Assembly (NCBI GenBank): GCA_963744655.1
Contig: CAVUUJ010000002.1
Location: 1,277,864-1,341,863, forward strand
Direction of reading: 5' to 3'
DNA from: an uncultured bacterium
Lineage (GTDB): Bacteria; Verrucomicrobiota; Kiritimatiellia; PWTM01
Length of the DNA stretch: 64,000 nucleotides
Each line of letters opens with the position of its first letter. Position 1 is the stretch's first letter. The notes beneath the pieces are model-generated. The model ran no database searches. It was not told the DNA's origin and worked only from the letters and a program-made list of their open reading frames with translations. Positions 4,752 through 45,420 of this stretch are shown here, piece by piece. The translations under genes were made by a program, and so were the position numbers.

Positions 4752-7604
4752 TTATCCTATTTGCGGCCAGTACGTTATGTAGCAAATGGGGTCTGAAACG
4801 GCCCTTAGAGGACCGAAAGGGGGCCGGATTCGGCGTTCTAAGGGGGGCCGCCCGAGGGTTCCACCGGACGCCCGGCGCTTCTCGTGTTGATCAGAGGTCA
4901 TGTCTGATCGGCCCTGCTTCGCGTGCCTGCTTCGGATGGCACCGGACAGCGCCTCATGTTCCCTGCGTCCCTTCTTCCGCCCGCGCGGCGGCGGCTGCAC
5001 GCGGACCGTTCCGCTGCCCGGGCCGCGTGTCGCCCGCGCGGCTGCGGCACGTCCGGCGAGGTCCGGCATCGCCCAGCCGCCGCACACGCGCGCGTCCAGC
5101 TCCCGGGCCGTCGCCGCGAAGGCCGGGTCCGCGGCGAGGTTCGTCAGCTCGCCCGGGTCGTTCTCGAGGTCGTAGAGCTGGTGCCGGTCGCCCTCGCTGT
5201 GCACGTACTTCCATCGCCCGGTGCGGATCATGCGTTCGGCGGTGCCCGCCGAGTAGTACTCGCTGAAGACCGCGTCGGGCCCCGGCGCGGCGGGGTCGTC
5301 GAGGAAGGGCCGCAGCGAGCGCCCGTCGAGCCCGTCCGGCGCCGCCAGCCCGCAGGCGTCGGCGAAGGTCGGGAACAGGTCGACCAGGCCGGCGAGCTGC
5401 GGCCGGACCGCGCCGGCGGCGGGCTCGGCGGGGCGGCGCACCATCAGCGGCACGCGCACGGCGGTGTCGAAGAAGCAGTGCTTCTGCACCATGCCGTGGT
5501 TGAAGAGGTTCTCCCCGTGGTCGGAGGTGTAGACCACCAGCGTACGGCCGGCGAGTCCGAGCCGGTCGAGCGCGTCGAGCACGCGCCCCGCCTGCTCGTC
5601 CATGTAGCTCACGTTCGCGTAGTACGCGGCCATGGCGCAGCGCAGCTCGCGGTCGGTGTACGCCCCCGGCGTGAGGACGGGGAACTCGGGGTTGTCGGCG
5701 ATGGTGTCGGGGAAGCCGTCGCGGGGCTGCGCGAGGTCCGGCGGCAGCTCGATCGTGTCCGGGTCGTACAGGTCGTGGAAGCGCTTCGGCGCGTACATCT
5801 CGTTGTGCGGCTTCTCGAGGCCGACCCAGAGGAAGAACGGCGCGTCCCCGCGGCGCTCGAGGAAGTCGATCGAGCGGTCCGCCACCATGCGGTCGAGGAT
5901 CAGCTCCTCCTCCAGCTCGATGGGTGCGTTGGCCGGGTTGATGCCGTTGCGGGGCGGGGGGGCGTCGGGCGGACGGTACTTCGGCAGGTAGCTGGCGTAC
6001 TTGTAGAAGTTCTCCAGCCCGATCGTGTGCTGGTAGTCGTTCGCCATCGGCGTGTAGATGCGGAGCGCCCGCTCGTCGAAGCCGAGGTCGTTCCCGTCCG
6101 TCTCGCCGGCGACGTGCACCTTGCCGAAGGCGGCGGTGGCGTAGCCGGCCCCGCGGAACAGCTCCCCGAGGAGCGGCAGGCCCATGTCGCGGCGCATGTG
6201 CCCGTGCGTGAGCGTGCCGCAGCGGTGCACGTGGCGGCCGGTGACGAGCGCGGAGCGGCAGGGGCCGCAGAGCGGCGAGGCGGCGTAGGCGCGTTCGAAG
6301 CGCACGGAGGAGGCGGCGAGCCGGTCGAGGTTCGGCGTGCGCACCACGGGATGGCCCGCGCAGCCGAGCGCGTCGAACCGGTGCTGGTCCGAGATGAGGA
6401 AGAGGACGTTGAGGGGCGCAGCGGGCTTCACGCTTCGCGCCCCCGTCCCGTCGTACCCGCCCTCGTCCAGCACGGCGTCGTAGACGGCCTGCAGGTTCTC
6501 CCGCGGGACGAGCGGGGGCAGGTTGTTGCCCTCGCGCATGCCGAAGCGGCCGCCTTCCTTCACCCCGGAGCGGAGGATGTCGCGCGCCGCCGCGTAGCAG
6601 CGTGCGGGCGTGCCGCCGAGGAGCAGCTCGACCGGCGGTCCGCCGGTGATCGTCACCTCCGGCCCGAGTTCGCGCCGGAGCCGGCCGTGGTCGACGGGGA
6701 AACCGGTGTCGAACGCGTTGACGCCGAGCCGCTCGCTGAGGAACGGGAAGTGCCGGGTGGCGTCGCCGCAGAGGTGGATGCCGCGCCGGCGCGCCTCGCG
6801 CGGCGCGGTCCCCATCTCCTCGTACCACAGCTCCATCGCCGGCAGCACGACCTCCTCGAGCAGATCGTGCCCGATGAGCTGGATCGAGTCGTCCGCCAGC
6901 GAGGCCCACTCGTCGCGCTCCGGCCGGCCGGCGATGCGGCGCAGGGCCCGGGTGCGCAGGATGGCCGCCCGCGTGATGTGCAGCAGCAGCTCGCGCGCCT
7001 TCTCCGGCTCCTCGGCCAGCAGCAGGAAGATGTCGGGGCCGAACAGGATCGTCCCCACGGTCAGGGGGCCGTCGAAGACGACGACGAAGGGCACCACCTC
7101 GCCCGCGCGGCCGAGGTGGCGGAACCCCTCCGCCGCCGCGAGCAGCTCCTCGCGGTAGGCGAGCGTGCGGCGGATGAAGGGGTTCTCGAGCGGGCGCGAG
7201 AAGTCGCGGCGCAGGAAGTCGTCCACGTCGTCGAGCCCGAGGAACGGCGCCACGTCGGGCACCTGGCCGTCGTGGAAGGAGGGCTGCCCGCCGAAGTACT
7301 GCCCGTCGTAGGTGTTGTGCCATTCGACCGAGAAGGTCCACCGCTCCGGGAGTTCGGCGACGTGGTCGCTGGAGAGCGAGAGTTCCTCGGCGCAGAACCG
7401 GTCGAAGCGCGCCTGCATGGCGAAACAGGCCTCCGGCTCCCGCAGCATCTGCTCGTAGGTGACACCCTCGGGGTTCCACGCCGGGTTCAGCACGACGACG
7501 CGGCTGTTGCAGCCCCAGTTGAGCGGGACGCGGACCGGCCGCCCGGCCCGGAACGCCTCCATCACCGCGCGCTTCTCCCCGTCGGTCGGGATCGGGTTCT
7601 TCAC
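4752..7604 (-). CDS. fusion protein: N-terminal URO-D/MtaA-like (uroporphyrinogen-decarboxylase superfamily) domain plus C-terminal Cys-type sulfatase
   Basis: 950-aa ORF with a GTG start in a GTGA overlap at 7601-7604. N-terminal half: ADDSIQLIGHDLLEEVVLPAMELWYEE...RGIHLCGDATRHFPFL...GVNAFDTG. C-terminal half: NVLFLISDQHRFDALG, SPLCGPCRSALVTGR (CxPxR), VVYTSDHGENL, DLENDPGELTNL. The last ~100 aa are a basic low-complexity tail read through an intergenic repeat. Confidence 0.8.
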   Translation of the reverse strand: MKNPIPTDGEKRAVMEAFRAGRPVRVPLNWGCNSRVVVLNPAWNPEGVTYEQMLREPEACFAMQARFDRFCAEELSLSSDHVAELPERWTFSVEWHNTYDGQYFGGQPSFHDGQVPDVAPFLGLDDVDDFLRRDFSRPLENPFIRRTLAYREELLAAAEGFRHLGRAGEVVPFVVVFDGPLTVGTILFGPDIFLLLAEEPEKARELLLHITRAAILRTRALRRIAGRPERDEWASLADDSIQLIGHDLLEEVVLPAMELWYEEMGTAPREARRRGIHLCGDATRHFPFLSERLGVNAFDTGFPVDHGRLRRELGPEVTITGGPPVELLLGGTPARCYAAARDILRSGVKEGGRFGMREGNNLPPLVPRENLQAVYDAVLDEGGYDGTGARSVKPAAPLNVLFLISDQHRFDALGCAGHPVVRTPNLDRLAASSVRFERAYAASPLCGPCRSALVTGRHVHRCGTLTHGHMRRDMGLPLLGELFRGAGYATAAFGKVHVAGETDGNDLGFDERALRIYTPMANDYQHTIGLENFYKYASYLPKYRPPDAPPPRNGINPANAPIELEEELILDRMVADRSIDFLERRGDAPFFLWVGLEKPHNEMYAPKRFHDLYDPDTIELPPDLAQPRDGFPDTIADNPEFPVLTPGAYTDRELRCAMAAYYANVSYMDEQAGRVLDALDRLGLAGRTLVVYTSDHGENLFNHGMVQKHCFFDTAVRVPLMVRRPAEPAAGAVRPQLAGLVDLFPTFADACGLAAPDGLDGRSLRPFLDDPAAPGPDAVFSEYYSAGTAERMIRTGRWKYVHSEGDRHQLYDLENDPGELTNLAADPAFAATARELDARVCGGWAMPDLAGRAAAARATRGPGSGTVRVQPPPRGRKKGRREHEALSGAIRSRHAKQGRSDMTSDQHEKRRASGGTLGRPPLERRIRPPFGPLRAVSDPICYITYWPQIG

Positions 7605-20053: not shown

Positions 20054-20134
20054 GACATCGTAATCGGCGGAGAGGTCCTGTTCAGCATGGGGTCGGCACA
20101 GGCGATGGAAGCCGCCGGATGAGGAGAACAAGAG

Positions 20135-20902
20135 ATGAAGAAGCGAGCAATCAGTGGCCTGATCTGCGTCGGCCTGTTGCTGGTCGCATTGTCGGCCGTG
20201 AGCGTTCATGCGGCGGTCATAACGGGGTTCACGACAGCAGAAGGCTATGACTTCGGAACAACCTACTGGAAGCATCCGAAGACGTTGACCAGCTACACGA
20301 CGGCCAACGGGACCGTCGATGGGACGAACTTCCACGCGGCCGACACGGCGACCGCCCATGCTAACTACTACTACGGCGAGCAGAGCACCGATCCGGGCAG
20401 CTCCGCGGGGCTGCTCGAGAACCTGGACGTCATGACCGGGTACGTCAACATAGCGGGGCAGACGAACTACGACTTCATGTTCAACGCGCCCTACCGCTTC
20501 AGCAGCGCGACGGGCAACCCCGGTAACGATGACGACTTCTTCGTGTTCGAGATATCGCCTAGCGATAGTCCCGACAACGTGACGCTGCAGGCTCTGGACT
20601 CCAGTTCCTCGCCCCTCGGCTCCGCGGTGTTCCTCAACCAGACGGCCATCCCCGGTGACGTGATCCGCTTCCGCGCCCCGAATCCCGCCCAGACTGACAT
20701 GAGCGGGTGGGGGTTCGATTACGACGATTTCGGAGTGGCGGATGCGACCCAGATCGCCGGCCTGCGCATCTACGATAGCCGCTCCGGCGGCGGCTTCGAT
20801 CCGGGCGTCGTAGGCATCAACAATGCCATCCCCGAGCCGGGGACGCTCGGCCTGCTCGGCGTGGCGGTGGCGGCCATGCTGCTCCGCCGGCGCCGTGCGT
20901 AA
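20135..20902 (+). CDS. PEP-CTERM sorting-domain protein
   Basis: 255-aa ORF. Signal peptide MKKRAISGLICVGLLLVALSAVSVHA. C-terminus IPEPGTLGLLGVAVAAMLLRRRRA*. RGGAG-like RBS. Confidence 0.85.
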   Translation: MKKRAISGLICVGLLLVALSAVSVHAAVITGFTTAEGYDFGTTYWKHPKTLTSYTTANGTVDGTNFHAADTATAHANYYYGEQSTDPGSSAGLLENLDVMTGYVNIAGQTNYDFMFNAPYRFSSATGNPGNDDDFFVFEISPSDSPDNVTLQALDSSSSPLGSAVFLNQTAIPGDVIRFRAPNPAQTDMSGWGFDYDDFGVADATQIAGLRIYDSRSGGGFDPGVVGINNAIPEPGTLGLLGVAVAAMLLRRRRA

Positions 20903-26766: not shown

Positions 26767-27657
26767 ATGATGAAGGTGACTATGTTTCGTCGAGTGACGG
26801 TTGCGGCGTCGATCGCCCTGTTCTGCGGTCTCATGTGGCCCGCGACGGCGGAGGCCACGACCGTCGGCTGGTGGCGCTTCGAGGACGGTGCGTTCCAGGA
26901 GGATTCCGGTCCTAACAACTTTGATCTGACCGTGCCCGCGGGTGACAACAACCCGGTCCAGGTCACTCCCTTGCCGGGCAGCGGCGACGGCAGCGCGTTC
27001 CAGAATCCGATTGCCAAGACCGGCGACTCCAATACCGGCCTTGCCCAATTCACGCCCAGCAGTTCTCGACCCCGGCTGCGTTCAGCGCCGGTTCCTCGTC
27101 GCTCTTCGCACTCGGCGCCGACTACACCTTCGAATTCATGTTCAACCGGGATACCGACGCCTACGGGTTCCTGTTCGCCCAGTGGACGGACGGCGGCGGA
27201 AGTGCCGGTAACACATTCGGCTTAGCCGTCGGCCAGGATGGCTCGGACTACATACGTGTGGCTCGGGGCAGTTCGTCCGCGAACCTCACGGCCGCGGGCG
27301 CGTTTACCACCGGCACGGACTACTATGTCGCCCTGGTCCGGGACGGCACCGCGAATACGGACCTGCTCTACCGCCAGGACCTGACCAACGGTGGGGCCCT
27401 GCAGGTGTTCGATGTCACCGCTGCCACGGCCGGCCAAAACAAGGTCATCGGTGACACGGGTCTCGGATGTGATCATCGGCGCGCTGCGGACGGGGTCTAC
27501 CTCCACCGACCTTCCGTTCAACGGGTTGATCGACGAGCTGCGCATCTCGGACACGGCCCTCGCGCAGAGCGAGCTCCTGGTCGTCCCCGAACCGGCGACG
27601 CTCGGCCTGCTGGGCCTGGCGGGTGTGGCCATGATCCTGCGCCGCCGCCGCGGCTGA
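26767..27657 (+). pseudogene. PEP-CTERM/LamG-like protein gene, copy 1; two compensating frameshifts
   Basis: The N-terminus (MMKVTMFRRVTVAASIALFCGLMWPATAEA...) and the C-terminus (..VVPEPATLGLLGLAGVAMILRRRRG*) are in the same frame. The homologous middle part (27138 ORF: MFNRDTDAYGFLFAQWTDG...) is in another frame. Relative to copy 2 there is a 1-nt deletion at 27061-27070 and a 1-nt insertion at 27449-27460. Confidence 0.7.
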
Positions 27658-29026: not shown

Positions 29027-29055
29027 TTGACCTGGATGGGGGCGGGGGGTAAGAA
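29027..29055 (+). promoter_or_regulatory. candidate promoter TTGACC-N17-TAAGAA (duplicate of 26675-26703)
   Basis: Identical hexamers and spacer. The same conserved leader follows. Confidence 0.4.
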
Positions 29056-29118
29056 GGGCATCGTAATCGGTGGAGAGGTTCTGTTCGGCATGCTGCCGGA
29101 ACAAGAAGGAAGGGGAGA

Positions 29119-30006
29119 ATGATGAAGGTGACTATGTTTCGTCGAGTGACGGTTGCGGTGTCGATCGCCCTGTTCTGCGGTCTCATGTGGCCCGCGACGG
29201 CGGAGGCCACGACCGTCGGCTGGTGGCGCTTCGAGAACGGTGCGTTCCAGGCGGATTCCGGTCCTAACAACTTTGATCTGACCGTGCCCGCGGGTGACAA
29301 CACCCCGGTCCAGGTCACTCCCTTGCCGGGCAGCGGCAACGGCAGCGCGTTCCAGAATCCGATTGCCAAGACCGGCGACTCCAATACCGGCCTTGCCCAA
29401 TTCACGCCCAGCGGTGCTACGACCCCGGCTGCGTTCAGTGCCGGTTCCTCGTCGCTCTTCGCACTCGGCGCCGACTACACCTTCGAATTCATGTTCAACC
29501 GGCCTGCCGAAACTTACGGGTACCTGTTCGGCCAGTGGACGGACGGCACAGGTGCCGGTAACGTTTTCGGCTTCGCCGTCGGCCAGGGTGGCTCGGACTA
29601 CATACGTGTGGGTCGGAACGCTAATGGCGTGAACCTCACGGACGCGGGCGCGTTTACCACCGGCACGGACTACTATGTCGCCCTGGTCCGGGACGGCACC
29701 GCGGATACGGACCTGCTCTACCGCCAGGACCTGACCAACGGTGGGCCCCTGCAGGTGTTCGATGTCACCGCTGCCACGGCCAGCCAAGACAAGGTCATCG
29801 GTGACACGTCTGCGAAAGTGATCATCGGCGCGCTGCGGACGGGGTCTAGCAGCACCGACATTCCGTTCAGCGGGTTGATCGACGAGCTGCGCATCTCGGA
29901 CACGGCCCTCGCGCAGAGCGAGCTCCTGGTCGTCCCCGAACCGGCGACGCTCGGCCTGCTGGGCCTGGCGGGTGTGGCCATGATCCTGCGCCGCCGCCGC
30001 GGCTGA
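29119..30006 (+). CDS. PEP-CTERM sorting-domain protein with a LamG/concanavalin-like body
   Basis: 295-aa intact ORF. Signal peptide. Motifs GADYTFEFMFNRPAETYGYLFGQWTDG, TDYYVALVRDGTADTDLLYRQD and FSGLIDELRISDTAL. C-terminus VVPEPATLGLLGLAGVAMILRRRRG*. Confidence 0.85.
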   Translation: MMKVTMFRRVTVAVSIALFCGLMWPATAEATTVGWWRFENGAFQADSGPNNFDLTVPAGDNTPVQVTPLPGSGNGSAFQNPIAKTGDSNTGLAQFTPSGATTPAAFSAGSSSLFALGADYTFEFMFNRPAETYGYLFGQWTDGTGAGNVFGFAVGQGGSDYIRVGRNANGVNLTDAGAFTTGTDYYVALVRDGTADTDLLYRQDLTNGGPLQVFDVTAATASQDKVIGDTSAKVIIGALRTGSSSTDIPFSGLIDELRISDTALAQSELLVVPEPATLGLLGLAGVAMILRRRRG

Positions 30007-34290: not shown

Positions 34291-35843
34291 AGAAGGCGCC
34301 GGGCTGGGCCGTGAGACTGGGAGGGATCGCCATGCTGGCTCTTTCCGTTGCGCGCGGGGAAGACGGGCTCCGGCTTCCGAGCGTCTTCTCCGAGGGCATG
34401 GTTCTGCAGCGGGACCTGCCGGTCCCGGTCTGGGGCGAGGCCCGTCCGGGCGCACGGGTGACGGTGCGGTTGTACGACCACGGGCGGCTGCTGGCCGACG
34501 CGTCCGCTACGGCGCGCGCGGACGACGGGGCCTGGCGCGTCGATCTCCCGCCGCAGCCGGCGGGCGGACGGTTCTCGCTGCTCGTCGAGAGCCGCCCGGC
34601 CGGCGCGGACGGGCGGGTCGCGCGGCGGCTTTTCACGAACGTGCTGATCGGCGAGGTGTGGATCCTGTGCGGCCAGTCCAACGCGCTTTTCGCGATGAAC
34701 GGGTGCGCGGAGCGGGAGGACGCGCTTGCCCGGCTCCGGGACTACCCGCTGATTCGCGTCTTCCAGCTCGGCGGCCGGGAGGACGTCCTCGAGGCGCGGG
34801 CGCCCCGGACGGACACGCAAGGGTACTGGGGACCGGCCAAGTGGGAAGAGGCCGCCTACACCGTGCCGCGGTCGAGCGAGACGGACGTGCCCGGCTCCTC
34901 GTCCGCCGTGAGCTACTTCTTCGCCCGGGCCCTCGCCCGGTGGCTGGGCCCCGGCGTGCCGGTGGGCATGATCGAGATCGGGGCCATCCTCCCCGTCGAA
35001 AGCTGGGTCGACGACCGGACCCTGGAGGGGGTCCCCGCCTTGCGCGGGCTGCGGGGCAAGGACTACCCCCACGCCACCGGGCGCGCGTTCAACGCCCTCA
35101 TCGCGCCGCTGGCCCCGTACGCTGTACGCGGCGCCGCCTACTACCAGGGCGAGATGAACGCCGGCCGTCCGGCAGACTACTACCACGGGCTGAAGGCCCT
35201 CGTCGCCGGCTGGCGCCGGGCGTGGGACCGCCCGGATCTGCCCTTCCTGCTCGTGCAGCTGCCGGGCTTCATCGAGCACCTCGCCGGGAAGACGGATCTG
35301 GACATGAACGCCGAGCAGTTGGCCCGCTTCGACGGCCGGAACGCCGATCACCCGTTCTGCCGCATTCGCGAGGCCCAGCGGCGGGTCAGCCGCGAGGTGC
35401 CCGGCGTCGGGCTGGCGGTGACGATCGACACGGGCGAGCGCTTCGACATCCATCCGCCGCGCAAGCGCGCCGCGGGCGAGCGCCTGGCGCTGCAGGCCCG
35501 CAAGGTGGCGTACGGCGACGGGACGGCGGCGGCCGACGGGCCGCGGCCCCGCGCCTTCCGGCGCGAGGGCGGGGCGTACCTCGTCGCCTTCGACGGCGTC
35601 GGCGGCGGCCTGCGGGCCAGGGGCAGGCTGGACGGGTTCGAACTGCGCGACGCGGACGGCGCGTGGCACCCCGCCCCCGCGCGAATCCGCGGCGACACGG
35701 TGGAAGTCCGGGCCGAGGCCGCGGCCGCGCCCACCGGTGTGCGCTACGCCTGGGCCGGGTATCCCCCGACGCCGCTCTACAACGCCGAGGGATTGCCCGC
35801 GACGCCCTTCCACGAACCGCCTGTCGCCTTCGACGTCCCCTGA
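34287..35843 (+). CDS. sialate O-acetylesterase-like (SASA/DUF303-type) carbohydrate esterase, secreted
   Basis: Signal peptide MKKAPGWAVRLGGIAMLALSVARG. Motifs LPSVFSEGMVLQRD, GEVWILCGQSNALFAM, RGAAYYQGEMN, FLLVQLPGF and VRYAWAGYP. Confidence 0.8.
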   Translation: MKKAPGWAVRLGGIAMLALSVARGEDGLRLPSVFSEGMVLQRDLPVPVWGEARPGARVTVRLYDHGRLLADASATARADDGAWRVDLPPQPAGGRFSLLVESRPAGADGRVARRLFTNVLIGEVWILCGQSNALFAMNGCAEREDALARLRDYPLIRVFQLGGREDVLEARAPRTDTQGYWGPAKWEEAAYTVPRSSETDVPGSSSAVSYFFARALARWLGPGVPVGMIEIGAILPVESWVDDRTLEGVPALRGLRGKDYPHATGRAFNALIAPLAPYAVRGAAYYQGEMNAGRPADYYHGLKALVAGWRRAWDRPDLPFLLVQLPGFIEHLAGKTDLDMNAEQLARFDGRNADHPFCRIREAQRRVSREVPGVGLAVTIDTGERFDIHPPRKRAAGERLALQARKVAYGDGTAAADGPRPRAFRREGGAYLVAFDGVGGGLRARGRLDGFELRDADGAWHPAPARIRGDTVEVRAEAAAAPTGVRYAWAGYPPTPLYNAEGLPATPFHEPPVAFDVP

Positions 35844-36119
35844 ACGCGTGAACTCAACGGCGGCACTCCGTCCGCTGAAGGAACTTGTTCGAATCTCTTC
35901 TCTCCCGCAAGGCCGCCAAAATCGCCGAGGTTTTCCTGTTCAGGCAGGCCGTTGACCGTGCGTGCGATGCCACGTTTCATCATGTCCTCACCGAAGTTCA
36001 GCAGGTAACCGAGCTTCAAGCCGGTGAGCTTCACATAGGTCAAGAGCCGCTTCTCGTGGGCCTCGGTGATCCGCTCAACGGACTTCAATCCGGCGCTCGA
36101 TTCAGAAAGAAATGACCGG

Positions 36120-36148
36120 TTGACGTTGTAACGTTGTAGCGCTATGCG
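36120..36148 (+). promoter_or_regulatory. candidate TA promoter TTGACG-N17-TATGCG overlapping the tandem 8-mer ACGTTGTA ACGTTGTA (36123-36138; possible antitoxin operator)
   Basis: Read directly. A GGGAGG RBS at 36160-36165 precedes ATG 36172. Confidence 0.4.
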
Positions 36149-36171
36149 GTTGTCGTGAAGGGAGGTAAGAC

Positions 36172-36594
36172 ATGAGCATCCTGACGAAACGCGCAACGGT
36201 CTATCTTGACCCGGTTCTGCACAAAGCGCTTCGCCTGCAGTCCGTCGAGACCTCACGGTCCGTTTCCGAACTGATCAACGACGCCGTTCGGGACGAACTC
36301 GCCGAAGATGCTCGCGACCTCGCCCAGTTTGATGAGCGAGTGAAGGAGACCACCGTTGACTTCGAGGACTTCGTGAAGAGTCTGCAGCGCGATGGCACGA
36401 TATGGAGTCATCGTCCGCAAGTCCGTCGCAAAGGACATGAGGGGCATCCCGAGGAAGGATGCCCGGCGCCTTGTTGCAGCCATCAAGTCCCTTGCGGACG
36501 ATCCTCGCCCGCCAGGTGCCAAGAAGCTCTCCGGTCAGGAGCGGTACCGTCTCAGGCAGGGGAAGTGCCGAATCCTGTACGAAGTCCGGCATGA
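36172..36594 (+). CDS. ribbon-helix-helix (CopG/RelB-like) antitoxin; the ORF is abnormally extended over the toxin gene
   Basis: MSILTKRATVYLDPVLHKALRLQSVETSRSVSELINDAVRDELAEDARDLAQFDERV... The first ~78 aa look like an antitoxin. The remaining ~60 aa are an out-of-frame overlap with the RelE gene. Confidence 0.65.
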   Translation: MSILTKRATVYLDPVLHKALRLQSVETSRSVSELINDAVRDELAEDARDLAQFDERVKETTVDFEDFVKSLQRDGTIWSHRPQVRRKGHEGHPEEGCPAPCCSHQVPCGRSSPARCQEALRSGAVPSQAGEVPNPVRSPA

Positions 36595-36649
36595 CAGGCT
36601 GATCGTCTGCGTCGTCCGAGCCGGAGGCCGCCGCGACGTCTACCGATGA
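36392..36649 (+). CDS. relE: RelE/ParE-family type II toxin
   Basis: 85 aa: MARYGVIVRKSVAKDMRGIPRKDARRLVAAIKSLADDPRPPGAKKLSGQERYRLRQGKCRILYEVRHDRLIVCVVRAGGRRDVYR. This is a canonical RelE/StbE-like pattern. Confidence 0.85.
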   Translation: MARYGVIVRKSVAKDMRGIPRKDARRLVAAIKSLADDPRPPGAKKLSGQERYRLRQGKCRILYEVRHDRLIVCVVRAGGRRDVYR

Positions 36650-36970
36650 GATAATCGAACAGGGCCCATGGACGGCACGGCGTACAGCCGCCCGTCATGG
36701 CCGGCGATCACCTTGCTCTGGACAACCGTATCGGCCCGGAAGCCTTCGACGAAACGCACGCCCCGGCACACCATGGCCACCGGCACTTGGCGTTCCGCGC
36801 TGAACCCTCGCTTCCGGATCTCATCCGGAAGGACGACTTTGTGGACCGTCTCCAGCCGTTCCGGACCAGGTTCGAGATGAACCGCCATAGCAGCGTCCAC
36901 GATTTTCCGGCTCTTTCGCGAATGCTGTGGGTTGCAGCTTGATTCCGGGCGTCTTGTGTCGCCACGGCGG

Positions 36971-37245
36971 GGTGAAGGTGTCGGGTTTCAGGTGTCGGGT
37001 TTCAGGGTCACTTCCCGAGCCGCAAGGGGTGTGGTTTTCGGTCACGTGCCGGCATTGATCGCCGGACCCGGCTGCCGGGTTCATGGCGCTCTCCTGCCGG
37101 CCTCTGGTGACCCGCATACCTCCGGACGCAGCCGGCACAGCTTGCGGTAGACCTCGAGGTCTTCCACCGCCATGCAGGTCCTCTCTGCCCTCTTTCCGTC
37201 CTGAAACCCGACACCTGAAACCTGAGCCCCGACACCGTTGTCACC
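36971..37245. repeat. imperfect ~40-bp inverted repeats built from 7-nt units (GTGTCGG GTTTCAG x2) flanking ~185 bp
   Basis: Left arm GGTGAAGGTGTCGGGTTTCAGGTGTCGGGTTTCAGGGTCAC. The right arm (37198-37245) is its approximate reverse complement. Confidence 0.7.
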
Positions 37246-37429
37246 GCCTACGGATCACGCCGGGGCTTCGACATGCCGGTCATCCACAGAATTCCAGACA
37301 GACCCCGATTTCTTCGCCTATGCTGTCCTCATCCATCTTCGCGATCTCTGCGCCTTTGCGAGAGTCGTTCCTCCTGTCTTCGAACGCCGGGCCCGCCGGG
37401 AGCCGGCGCGCCCCGACGTCCGCCGACCT

Positions 37430-39673
37430 TTACCGCGTGTGCGGGCAAGCCAGGACGCAGGCCTCGAAGGCGCAGGGGCGGGCCCGTTCGATGGCCGGAA
37501 GCTTGCGCAGCGCTTCCTCCAGCGCTTCGGCGGTCACGTCCTCCGGCGGGCGGACGTCCAGTTGCCAGCCGAGCAGCCCCGGGCCCTCCTCCGCCACGAG
37601 CCCGTGGCGCTTCGACCAGTCGCACCGAACGCGTTCGATCGGGTGGAAGGTCTCGGTCGCGCTTCCCACCGCCACCGTGACGGGCTCGCGGAACGCCCCG
37701 ACCGGGCACACCTCAAGGCAGCGCGAGCAGCCTTCGCAGTCCGGGCGCACGGCGTCGTCCGCCGGTCCCGACACCGGCAGGGGCGCGTCGGTCACGATGC
37801 TGACCGTGCGGAGGTTCGAGCCGTGAACGGGGTGCACCACGTGCCCGCAGCGGCCGAGGCGGCCGAGGCCCGCCGCCACGGCGGCGAAACGGTTGCAGAA
37901 CCAGTCCGGCTGCGTGCCGCGGGAGTTGGCGGTCCCCGACCCGGTGCCCAGCAGGTCGTGGGAGACCCACGCGCGGTGGCCCGCCGCCTCGAGGCGGGCC
38001 GCGACGCGCCACGCCGCCAGCAGCAGCAGCACCTGCGATTCGTACTCGGCCAGGCTCAGCGGGCCGGGCGCCTCGGCCGGGGGCCGCCCGGTACAGGCCA
38101 CGGACTCACGGGGGAGCGGCAGGCCGAGGACGAGGACCGACGCGGCGCCGGGCCAGCGTTCCCCGGGCCCGCGGACGTCCACGGCCTGCTCCGTCACCGC
38201 CGGGTCCATCGGCAGGAACCGGTTCTCGAAGCCTTGCCGGTCCCGGGCCGCCAGGTCCCGCTGGCCGGCCCAGTGCGGCCGGAGCTGCGCGGCCACGTCG
38301 TCGAGGACGCCCGCCGAGGCGACGCCCGAGAGGAAACCCTCGGCGACGCGGTCCGCCTCGCGGCGGAGGTCCTCCAGCCCGGCCCGGACCCGCGCGGGGG
38401 CCGGCAGGCGGGCGGCGGTCGGCTCCAGCGGGGCGGTCGTCAGCACCGTCTGCGTCAGGATCGGCACCCCGGCCTCGATCTCCGCCGCGAACCGCGCCTC
38501 GTCGTGGTCGGTCTCGCAGATCGCGTCGTGGCCGTTCCGTTCCAGCTCGCGGGTGATGTCGTAGGCCGCCTGCGCCAGGATGCGCCCCGCCATCTCGTCC
38601 CGCCGCGGCATCGGCGTCCCGGGCAGGCGCAGGACCACGGTCACGCCGCGGACCGCCCCGGGCAGGTGCGCGTCCATCTCGCCGGCCGCGAGCGGGACGA
38701 CCGCGAGGCCGTCCGCTCCGCGGCCCTCGGCCAGGCCGGCGAGCCGCCACGCGATCGCGCGGCCGGGCGGGGTCTCGCCCGGCACGACGTCGCGCCGGCG
38801 GCGCGGCGCGTCGGTGTAGGCCGGGTCCCGGTACCGGCGCGCCGCGGGGAGGCAGTAGCGGAGGCAGCTTCCCATCTCGCCGCCGCGGAGGCCGTGCCGC
38901 GCGCGGGCCTCCTCGATCGTCTCCGGCGTCACCGTCTCGGGTAGGTCCAGGTCCAGGTCCAGGTCGAAGTGCTCGCCCCAGGCGCAGCGCCAGAGGTTCT
39001 TGCGCGCGTAGCGGTAGACCTTGTCCTCGATCCGGACCTCGTTCCAGCCGTCGACCTCCTTCGAGAGCGCCCCGCTCATGCAGTGTTTGCGGCACAGCAT
39101 GCAGTGGTCGCACACGCTCCCGGGCTCCAGCAGCGGTGTCGGGGTCAGCGCCGCGTCGGTGAGGACCGTGATCCAGCGGTTGCGCGCGCCGAACTCCGGG
39201 GAGATCGCGAGGCCGCTGAAGCCGAACTCCGCCAGCCCGGCCGCCACCGCCGCGTGCATGTGGGAGAGGTCCGGCGCGAAGACCTCCGGCATCTCCTTGT
39301 ACGACCGGTAGCGCCAGCTATTCGAACTGAAGACCGCCACCGCCTCGTGCCCGAGCGACTGCAGGTGGTTGGCGAGCCGGAAGCTCATCTCGTCCAGCCG
39401 CTGGTTCATCCGGTACTGCACGCGGTAGGGGCCGATCTCCTGCGGGTGCGTCCTGCCGCCGAGCTCGATGCAGGCGTCCGGATGGTGCACGGCCATCACG
39501 ACGACGCTGCGCGCCGAGGGCATGATGCCGGCGGGGCTCATGCGGGGCGGCGCGTGCAGGAACCGCTCCACGTTGGCGATGCCGCACAGGTCCGCGCGGA
39601 GCGTCTCCAGGGCGTAGCGCCGAAGGCAGGTCGAGGCCGGGGTCTCGATGGCGGGTTTCTCGGGCATCTTCAT
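37430..39673 (-). CDS. tandem (two-module) QueG/reductive-dehalogenase-like 4Fe-4S protein
   Basis: Start MKMPEKP (ATG 39673, 7 nt after AGGAG; alternative start 39679). Module 1: SHMHAAVAAGLAEFGFSGLAISPEFGARNRWITVLTDAAL...CDHCMLCRKHCMSGAL. Module 2: NRFAAVAAGLGRLGRCGHVVHPVHGSNLRTVSIVTDAPL...CEGCSRCLEVCPVGAF...CAFEACVLACP. The upstream 400 aa of the track ORF are shadow. Confidence 0.7.
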   Translation of the reverse strand: MKMPEKPAIETPASTCLRRYALETLRADLCGIANVERFLHAPPRMSPAGIMPSARSVVVMAVHHPDACIELGGRTHPQEIGPYRVQYRMNQRLDEMSFRLANHLQSLGHEAVAVFSSNSWRYRSYKEMPEVFAPDLSHMHAAVAAGLAEFGFSGLAISPEFGARNRWITVLTDAALTPTPLLEPGSVCDHCMLCRKHCMSGALSKEVDGWNEVRIEDKVYRYARKNLWRCAWGEHFDLDLDLDLPETVTPETIEEARARHGLRGGEMGSCLRYCLPAARRYRDPAYTDAPRRRRDVVPGETPPGRAIAWRLAGLAEGRGADGLAVVPLAAGEMDAHLPGAVRGVTVVLRLPGTPMPRRDEMAGRILAQAAYDITRELERNGHDAICETDHDEARFAAEIEAGVPILTQTVLTTAPLEPTAARLPAPARVRAGLEDLRREADRVAEGFLSGVASAGVLDDVAAQLRPHWAGQRDLAARDRQGFENRFLPMDPAVTEQAVDVRGPGERWPGAASVLVLGLPLPRESVACTGRPPAEAPGPLSLAEYESQVLLLLAAWRVAARLEAAGHRAWVSHDLLGTGSGTANSRGTQPDWFCNRFAAVAAGLGRLGRCGHVVHPVHGSNLRTVSIVTDAPLPVSGPADDAVRPDCEGCSRCLEVCPVGAFREPVTVAVGSATETFHPIERVRCDWSKRHGLVAEEGPGLLGWQLDVRPPEDVTAEALEEALRKLPAIERARPCAFEACVLACPHTR

Positions 39674-44522: not shown

Positions 44523-45257
44523 TCAGCCGCGGCGCCGGCGCAGCACGAAGGCCATGCCCGCGAGGCCCAGCAGGCCCAGCGTGGCCGGCTCGGGAATCGC
44601 CGTCACCGAGAGGTTGTCGACCAGGCTCTGGGTGCCGGTGATGCTGTCCTCGATCTGGATCCAGAGCTTCTGGCCGTCGGAGACGCCCGTTGCGAGCAGG
44701 CTGTCGGTCAGGCCCTGCTGGACCCGGCCTCCGCTCACCGCGACCCACCCGGCGTCACCGTCCGTGAACGTCGCTGTCTGGTCGAGTATCGCGTGCGAGG
44801 CGTCCGTGGAGAGCTTGGTGCCGTCGGCCGGCGTGAAGCCCGCGCTCGTGGCCACGAGGTAGAGGGTCAAATCCCCGAAAAGGTGGCTGCTGCGATCTCC
44901 GAGGTCGAAGCTCACGTCGAACTGGGTCGGGTTGCCCGTGTTCCACGTGCCGAGGAGCTGGTACACCCCCGCGGGATCGGTCGACTCGGAATTGACGTTC
45001 ACCCAGTACTGGCCTTCCTGCGCATCGGGCACCGTGCTGTTCGTCTCGTCCTGCAGCGTCGACCAGTTGGACCCCGTTTGATCCTCGTACCAGTTGTCGA
45101 TCCCCTGGTAGTTGGTGAAGCCGGTACCGAAGGGGTCTGTTCCGGGCGTTTCCAGTGCCGGGACAGAGATCGGACCGGCCACGATCGTCGCCTGTGCCAG
45201 CGGCGCCGTCAGCGCGACCACCAGCGCGAACACCCATGCTTGCTTGCTCATACTCAT
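44523..45257 (-). CDS. PEP-CTERM sorting-domain protein
   Basis: Start MSMSKQAWVFALVVALTAPLAQA (ATG 45257, AGGAAGGAG RBS). C-terminus AIPEPATLGLLGLAGMAFVLRRRRG*. Confidence 0.85.
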   Translation of the reverse strand: MSMSKQAWVFALVVALTAPLAQATIVAGPISVPALETPGTDPFGTGFTNYQGIDNWYEDQTGSNWSTLQDETNSTVPDAQEGQYWVNVNSESTDPAGVYQLLGTWNTGNPTQFDVSFDLGDRSSHLFGDLTLYLVATSAGFTPADGTKLSTDASHAILDQTATFTDGDAGWVAVSGGRVQQGLTDSLLATGVSDGQKLWIQIEDSITGTQSLVDNLSVTAIPEPATLGLLGLAGMAFVLRRRRG

Positions 45258-45420
45258 CGCTCTCCTTCCTTTCTTTCCGGAAGTTCTCCGGAGTTCCGAA
45301 CCCGCACCGTCCCCACTCCACTCGGGACGCCTCCCACAAGGCATGTTAAGTATCGCCGTCATGTTCTAGGAAGTATCGACAAATCCAGACAATAACTATA
45401 CAGCTACAGACACAGACAAC

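Follow-up and report, generated by a model that had tools for sequence, protein, structure and literature searches.

A toxin-antitoxin gene cassette with its own attC site inside a GxxExxY gene cassette of an uncultured Kiritimatiellia bacterium

Cassettes at secondary sites and the present locus

Recchia, Stokes and Hall reportedly described, in 1994-95, resistance cassettes at secondary sites, one example being aadB in RSF1010. More recently, the integron integrases IntI1, IntI2 and IntI3 were found to insert cassettes throughout the Escherichia coli genome at attG sites, 5'-GWT-3', with cleavage after the G; that report gives lone genomic cassettes the name SALIN and describes integron integrases as exchanging one strand of a folded attC site, followed by replicative resolution (Loot et al., bioRxiv 10.1101/2022.09.11.507474). 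Integrons have also been reported in Verrucomicrobia and Planctomycetes, and toxin-antitoxin (TA) modules are among the cargo of Vibrio chromosomal integrons (PMC4889954). Here we describe a TA pair that splits another gene in an uncultured bacterium (GTDB lineage Bacteria; Verrucomicrobiota; Kiritimatiellia; PWTM01). The locus lies in a 64,000-nt stretch of 72.7% GC (assembly GCA_963744655.1, contig CAVUUJ010000002.1, positions 1,277,864 to 1,341,863, forward strand), which we call the window and number from its first letter. In it, a minus-strand gene of the GxxExxY family is interrupted by a 611-nt insert at 36096-36706.

We consider it likely that this insert is an integron-type gene cassette, consisting of a self-regulated pair of a ribbon-helix-helix (RHH) antitoxin and a ParE-type toxin together with its own attC site, which an integron integrase (IntI) inserted at a secondary site in another cassette. 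The TA cassette would have been excised elsewhere as a circle, and an IntI encoded outside the window would have inserted it neither at attI nor at attC, but at the secondary genomic site 5'-CCGGCG|ATCACC-3', with the cut after the G of GAT. The proposed target lies in the open reading frame (ORF) of the GxxExxY cassette, itself alone between two putative host genes. The presumed outcome is a lone attC cassette without an integrase, and thus SALIN-like, nested in opposite orientation inside another SALIN-like cassette. The identity and limits of the cassette, the layout of its attC site, the exact reconstruction of the empty site and the decay of both genes are shown by the data, and catalysis by an integron integrase, the circular intermediate and this order of events are inferred.

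The locus shares with SALIN or attG insertions the combination of one ORF unit and one attC site with no integrase nearby, a crossover after the G of 5'-GWT-3' (here G|AT), the disruption of a gene, and a site that precise excision would restore. It differs in being a natural case in an uncultured bacterium of 72.7% GC, whereas the SALIN work is an E. coli assay, in having as its target the ORF of another cassette, and in the opposite orientation of its two attC sites. Its core, GTTCGAT or GCTCGAT, also sets it apart, as do six bases to the left of the cut that attC and target share, a feature that the accessible part of that work does not describe. Like the TA cassettes of chromosomal integrons (PMC4889954), the insert is a small, self-promoted type II TA pair with an attC site, and its relatives stand in long, same-strand, TA-rich arrays; unlike them, the window copy is alone, outside an array, and decaying (antitoxin stop, toxin residues and -10 box). 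Its likeness to transposable elements, that is, miniature inverted-repeat transposable elements (MITEs) and insertion sequences, is that of a short, non-autonomous insert with direct repeats at its junctions, but it has no terminal inverted repeats and the hexamer at its ends does not reproduce the ancestral target; a second, 400-nt element in the same gene does fit that type. With the reported aadB type it has in common a precise cassette insertion at a GNT-type site away from an integron, where the cassette is left stranded, and it differs in cargo, host and integrase class, those cases being on plasmids. The TA insert is not a new kind of mobile element; it is an example of the recently described spread of cassettes.

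The insert, its attC site and its empty target

An earlier note on this DNA had described the GxxExxY gene as split in two by a TA cassette flanked by CCGGCG, with excision of 611 nt rejoining the frame, and these observations hold. The hexamer is read at both junctions, at 36090-36095 and at 36701-36706. The N-terminal part of the gene covers positions 8-72 of the PF13366 profile and the C-terminal part positions 75-116; the joined protein gives one continuous match to positions 9-116 (E 2.5e-26) and matches the family model TIGR04256 (GxxExxY) with E 3.6e-25. In an alignment to nine intact homologues (59-76% identity) the junction is free of gaps, KVIAG|LKSVE in the window facing KVIIELKSVE, and excision likewise leaves no gap against the intact 127-aa homologues known from metagenomes, whose identity reaches 80%. 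At the DNA level, both halves are 84-87% identical to genes that are contiguous in the related loci L046 and L047. When both insertions are taken out of the gene, leaving one repeat copy each, 127 in-frame codons are regained. No second copy of the TA pair or of the GxxExxY gene was found in the 64-kb window.

The ends of the insert recur in other genomic settings. Similarity to the RHH/ParE cassette starts at the same left end, G|TTCGATTCAG, in at least 10 other contexts, and does so exactly, with unrelated flanks; the window has G|CTCGATTCAG at 36095/36096, a terminus of G|CTCGAT. At the right end, four related loci (L021, L002, L031 and L040) share the toxin stop followed by ATCGAAC, an imperfect palindrome and G|TT, and the window shows the same layout, ATCGAAC...CATGGCCGGCG|, with the junction G at 36706. 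Delimited by this cross-context DNA similarity and by the attC crossover point, the cassette of 611 nt lies on the plus strand, beginning at (G|)CTCGATTCAG and ending in CATGGCCGGCG(|ATCACC). The reading of the insert as a discrete, precisely bounded, non-autonomous mobile unit is supported. Identical toxin proteins occur in unrelated contexts, one (P0002) in three and another (P0017) in two, always with the 77-aa antitoxin alongside, and the contexts are often same-strand arrays of other TA pairs. Relatives were found in at least seven groups of metagenome-assembled genomes (MAGs), namely Kiritimatiellae/Kiritimatiellia, Verrucomicrobiota, a planctomycete, Paceibacterota, Sumerlaeia, Deltaproteobacteria and Bacillota.

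The right end of the insert is an attC site of 59 nt (36654-36712, plus strand). Sites of this type are imperfect palindromes of roughly 57-141 nt that have L'' and L' boxes, spacers left unpaired, and extrahelical bases on one arm once the bottom strand is folded. We searched both strands of the 64 kb, unfiltered, with a covariance model (R1) made from 11 attC sites of other loci and no window sequence. Only two matches were significant, the next best reaching 13.4 bits (E 0.85). The attC site of the TA cassette scored 25.9 bits (E 7.9e-4), and the best match in the window, at 35839-35893 on the minus strand, scored 29.8 bits (E 8.5e-5) and belongs to the GxxExxY gene. In the TA site, the plus strand reads R'' ATCGAAC (36654-36660), L'' GGCCCATGGACGG (36663-36675), L' CCGTCATGGCC (36692-36702), the spacer GGC (36703-36705) and the crossover G (36706), after which target sequence stands in place of the remaining R' (36707-36712). 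The inverse core ATCGAAC is complementary to the left terminus CTCGAT, a single G.T wobble in bottom-strand pairing included. Once the site is reconstituted, its bottom strand has a folding energy of -18.5 kcal/mol (z -3.4). Its bulges are mostly on the 3', double-prime arm of that strand, as they are in the majority of the other attC sites folded, which are unrelated in sequence.

Across the 11 sites of other loci from which R1 was made, 80.6% of cells pair, as compared to 29-38% when the partners are slid, and 13 of 19 pairs show compensatory changes. When R1 was run on 24 related loci, every one of its 31 matches lay on the strand of the cassette genes. The core in relatives is ATCGAAC...G|TTCGAT, and other cassettes have xxCCAAC...G|TTGGAC; AAC and GTT are kept, but the RRR positions read C-G-A in this cassette family, so that the textbook consensus (R'' RYYYAAC and R' GTTRRRY, mutually complementary, with the crossover at G|TT) is matched only in part. 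At gathering thresholds, Rfam matched nothing in the window. The earlier note had remarked on an unusual, autonomous TA insertion without terminal inverted repeats. Repeats of the transposon type are indeed lacking, but the insert closes with an attC site, and the inverse core of that site is complementary to the left terminus.

The cargo is small. A promoter-like TTGACG-N17-TATGCG (36120-36148, plus strand), read from the sequence and conserved in relatives, overlaps a tandem ACGTTGTA ACGTTGTA at 36123-36138 that is likely the operator for the RHH antitoxin. The antitoxin gene of 77 codons follows at 36172-36405 on the same strand; its product in the window has a weak RHH match (PF20605), and its homologues carry PF22180 (RH3_dom). 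Overlapping it by 14 nt, the plus-strand gene at 36392-36649 encodes an 85-aa toxin of the ParE/RelE family (PF05016 ParE_toxin, E 1.1e-7). This toxin has 1865 homologues at E <= 1e-5; among the 120 matches listed, most are 85 aa long and identity reaches 85%, and the best named homologue among them comes from a Kiritimatiellae MAG. A look-up of the exact window protein returned no identical record. The predicted pair has the features by which type II TA systems are recognized, with an antitoxin gene upstream of an overlapping toxin gene, a ParE/RelE domain, a DNA-binding antitoxin and repeats at the promoter. As the note had stated, the insert carries only a promoter and operator, the RHH antitoxin and the ParE/RelE toxin; it must be mobilised in trans, as was also suggested there.

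Because the second R1 match belongs to the GxxExxY gene, that gene is an attC-bearing cassette itself. Homology to L046, L047 and L048, together with the attC site, places this cassette at 35845-37384 on the minus strand, with a length of about 523 nt before the two insertions. The minus-strand homology starts at G|TTCGAAGACA (37385/37384 in the window) and ends at ATTCGAAC, the inverse core of the attC site, and what precedes the cassette start TTCGAAGACA is different in each of the window, L046, L047 and L048. The boxes of this minus-strand site are R'' TTCGAAC and R' G|TTCAGG, the latter overlapping the stop codon (35841-35843) of a plus-strand ORF. The stretch 35845-37384 is a low-GC island (55-65%, vs 72.7% for the window) in which the GxxExxY cassette sits alone between two convergent high-GC ORFs, one on the plus strand ending at 35843 and one on the minus strand ending at 37430, both presumably host genes. 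For the two cassettes, the nearest relatives with a name are in Kiritimatiellae and Victivallales MAGs. We found nothing in support of targeted capture by a PD-(D/E)XK host gene family, which the note had suggested; the host gene is another cassette. Full-text searches of a searchable library found no paper that brings together GxxExxY and integrons, and none that brings together integron, attC and Kiritimatiell-.

The CCGGCG hexamer and rival explanations

The two copies of CCGGCG differ in nature. The left copy (36090-36095) belongs to the target, bordering the left junction; read on the minus strand, it supplies the Ala-Gly codons of ..KVIAG LKSVE... The right copy (36701-36706) is composed of the last two bases of the L' stem, the spacer between L' and R', and the crossover G. 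The right copy is the cassette's own sequence rather than duplicated target, because 36701-36702 pair in the L' stem, which they close (GGCC of L' against GGCC of L''), and the spacer and crossover G take up 36703-36706. At the left site, the closest intact relatives differ from the hexamer at 2-3 of its six positions, the closest DNA relatives reading ATC ATC GAG, ATC ATC GGG and ATC ATT GAA. The 6-bp target-site duplication proposed in the earlier note is not supported, in contrast to that of the 400-nt element, whose CGATTT repeat is single and unchanged in L046. The crossover 5'-G|AT-3' fits the GWT consensus for insertions outside integrons, and the locus resembles a SALIN in its lone attC cassette and G|AT cut; there is no duplication provided that one assigns the right hexamer to the attC site.

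Several points weigh against insertion by IntI at such a site. The hexamer replaces near-universal Ile/Leu/Val-Glu codons, with Glu in 104 of 106 homologues and Ala-Gly in none of the 106. Five extra identical bases at a fixed junction G would arise by chance with a probability of about 0.001-0.003, and six identical bases at both junctions are unexpected from the single-strand attC pathway. The core, GTTCGAT in relatives and GCTCGAT in the window, departs from the textbook GTTRRRY, and R1 is a home-made model from 11 sites whose E-values are rough. Finally, neither the window nor any of the related loci yielded an integron integrase. There was no match to Phage_integrase (PF00589) on record for the genes called in the fetched loci, where several arrays reach contig ends; the 10-kb flanks of arrays showed no integrase, with two arrays running to the contig end; and a regular expression for tyrosine-recombinase box II motifs found none in the window, which is weak negative evidence. 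The lower-GC window ORFs that we inspected by eye resemble regulators and PEP-CTERM proteins rather than recombinases.

The identity of the left hexamer probably reflects mechanism, because a chance match and AT-to-GC drift are both unlikely; at a rate of about 0.17 per AT site, drift would produce the match in roughly 1-3% of cases. The usual single-strand, replication-resolved pathway gives no explanation for the identity to the spacer. Three sub-models would account for it: a site chosen or favoured for its match to the spacer, two-strand exchange followed by repair towards GC, and integrase-free integration by microhomology. A target with the hexamer already present would read ..CTTCAATCCGGCGATCACC.., and the hexamer sits between the L' and R' boxes, where the crossover region of a classical tyrosine-recombinase site is placed. 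We also considered the Ile-Glu-Leu codons as a general mimic of the core site; this idea is weak, with ATCGAGC only in L046, ATCGGGC in L047 and ATTGAAT in L048-L050.

The rival that survives best dispenses with an integrase. A circular cassette may have entered by illegitimate, microhomology-mediated recombination, or by template switching at the attC hairpin, between its own CCGGCG and a copy that the decayed GxxExxY pseudogene had beforehand. A reciprocal crossover within the shared hexamer gives the exact layout, one copy per junction with no base lost or gained, and CCGGCG abounds in this genome (189 plus-strand copies in 64 kb); that no integrase was found also favours this route. Yet the last base of the hexamer is the canonical crossover G of attC sites, and the insert begins on the left as cassettes canonically do, which would be a coincidence if the process were blind to att sites, and the target hexamer requires 2-3 earlier substitutions relative to close relatives. 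We regard this route as unlikely.

It is likewise rather doubtful that the hexamer is a 6-bp crossover region, used either in two-strand exchange with a target matching the spacer, or at a core-like site of Ile-Glu-Leu codons (antisense GYTCGAT) followed by GC-biased repair. The corresponding rival, a classical two-strand tyrosine-recombinase exchange between a double-stranded attC site and the target, with CCGGCG as the 6-bp overlap, appears improbable to us even in its favoured version, that of an Ile-Glu-Leu core-like target and repair towards GC. The hexamer does occupy the spacer between L' and R', where classical cleavage points would fall; by our own derivation from the relatives' sequences, an ancestral CTTCAAT|TCGATG|ATCACC reproduces both junctions base for base; and the antisense strand of L046 reads GCTCGAT at the site, the same as the core of the window cassette. 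However, core-like codons occur in only one of the five sampled relatives, 2-3 mismatches in a 6-bp overlap normally block tyrosine recombinases, and directional mismatch repair would be needed at both junctions. Integron integrases are moreover described as single-strand exchangers of folded attC sites (bioRxiv 10.1101/2022.09.11.507474).

A MITE-like non-autonomous transposon, moved by a transposase in trans and leaving a 6-bp target-site duplication, would account for direct 6-bp repeats at both junctions and has a model in the neighbouring element of the same gene, with its 6-bp target duplication and terminal inverted repeats, but it is very improbable for a TA insert that lacks such inverted repeats, has its right repeat inside the attC stem and spacer, carries a hexamer that differs from the relatives' sequence at the site, and belongs to a cassette whose ends elsewhere are of the att type, G|TT.

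Decay, neighbouring elements and meaning of the locus

Both the TA cassette and the GxxExxY cassette are decaying. In the promoter, the -10 hexamer (36143-36148) is TATGCG in the window, as compared to TATGAT or TATGCT in relatives; a scan for sigma-70 promoters called TTGACG-17-TATGAT in L021 and called no promoter for the window copy, in which the -10 hexamer ends in G. The antitoxin stop position (36403-36405) reads TGG, where all 16 sampled homologues have a stop, and the ORF continues to 36594 (140 aa). The toxin departs from the >=85% consensus at 7 positions. Its substitutions R5G, N58K, E66R and D67H are found in none of 119 homologues and Y59C in one of them (codons 5, 58, 59, 66 and 67). 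Toxin GC at third codon positions is 0.73 in the window and 0.62-0.72 in relatives, and the window copies are GC-richer than their relatives; this higher GC fits a long residence in a genome of 72.7% GC.

The GxxExxY gene carries three further kinds of damage, namely a second insertion (36906-37305), a 1-nt deletion that loses the stop codon, and substitutions in conserved motifs. Its C-terminal piece (..AGLKSVE..NGLPE), the one that lost the stop codon through the deletion, lies at 35936-36095, its middle piece (VDAAMAVHLE..KVI) at 36707-36899, and its true 5' piece (MDEDSIGEEI) at 37306-37336 with the ATG at 37336, all on the minus strand. The GxxExxY motif reads ERLETVH, and the near-invariant Glu of the family is Gly. 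Although the joined protein matches the family model, the window gene is a pseudogene, and the host GxxExxY cassette is disposable DNA that has tolerated two insertions.

The second insertion, 400 nt at 36906-37305, is unrelated to the first, and its terminal inverted repeats are imperfect and 25 nt long. On either side stands CGATTT (36900-36905 and 37306-37311), which is a duplication of target sequence because L046 has it as a single unchanged copy. The inner inverted repeats of the element are tandem 14-nt units. With up to 3 mismatches allowed, the motif GGTGTCGGGTTTCAGG occurs 5 times (0.76 expected) and always within the element, which looks like a MITE; no further copies were found in the window or in the fetched loci. 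We had at one point read the N-terminal disruption of the gene as a frameshift, a reading rejected in favour of this insertion. A small ORF in the element, MAVEDLEVYRKL.., was considered as a remnant of a four-helix-bundle or 23S rRNA intervening-sequence protein; the idea was dropped, since the ORF has no Pfam match and does not resemble the IVP protein found in L047.

Relatives of the TA cassette occur in arrays. In L001, L002, L011, L012 and L042, where small genes, mostly of TA pairs, follow one another on one strand, the majority of the intergenic gaps contain an attC site, reading xxCCAAC or xxCGAAC, a palindrome, and then C-G|TTGGAC or G|TTCGAT; cassette arrays were found in L001, L012, L042, L051 and L052. 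The last two are from two samples and have in common both the chromosomal neighbourhood, upstream of a BipA/TypA-like GTPase gene, and the terminal TA cassette, and L052 has four additional upstream TA pairs (MazE-PemK, Phd-PIN, MazE-PIN and MazE-PemK). At this fixed locus the array varies between strains, as in integron arrays. In three other places (L042 3259-3317, L044 about 1175-1300 and L024 about 5259-5400) the toxin stop is followed by a shared CGATCGGGATAG...CCCAC.CCAC. with no attC site, a sequence that may be another element inserted at, or replacing, attC. Weak R1 matches (about 25-27 bits) in L002 (5948-6010) and L054 (9157-9214) directly follow genes for a 521-aa GH32 glycoside hydrolase and a 500-aa sulfatase, respectively, next to TA cassettes, and the cargo of these arrays may include large enzymes of glycan degradation.

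Relatives of the GxxExxY cassette offer two further observations. In L048, the cassette lies between 22-nt inverted repeats, GGAAATGGTGACAGACGCCATC and GATGGTGTCTGTCACCATTTCC (about 1040-1070 and 1600-1625), an arrangement suggestive of insertion into a hairpin. In L047, a 23S_rRNA_IVP (four-helix-bundle) gene at 270-944 stands directly upstream of the GxxExxY cassette and may be a neighbouring cassette. In the window itself, four PEP-CTERM-like ORFs (20123-20902, 27385-27657 and 29053-30006 on the plus strand, 44523-45365 on the minus strand) have, by eye, near-identical anchors ..PEPATLGLLGLAG.A..LRRRRG at their ends, and three of them lie in lower-GC stretches (about 64%).

The locus is of modest, specialist interest, for a cassette inside a cassette, for GxxExxY genes as cassettes, and for an identity of spacer length at the junctions. 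A natural case with both junctions and a base-perfect empty site is the field evidence that had been missing for the GWT-site insertion seen in the laboratory, and it comes from a lineage far from the Gammaproteobacteria, where integrons have mostly been studied. For annotation, lone TA pairs that split genes need to be checked for an attC site before a new element is claimed. The six-base identity at the attC spacer is a testable hint on how secondary sites are chosen. If the two-strand explanation were true, there would be integron integrases that act at genomic sites through a double-strand pathway guided by homology, and a landing pad would be built into GxxExxY cassettes. GxxExxY genes are small, occur in many copies and are of unknown role, and their travel as attC cassettes may explain the patchy, multi-copy distribution of the family.

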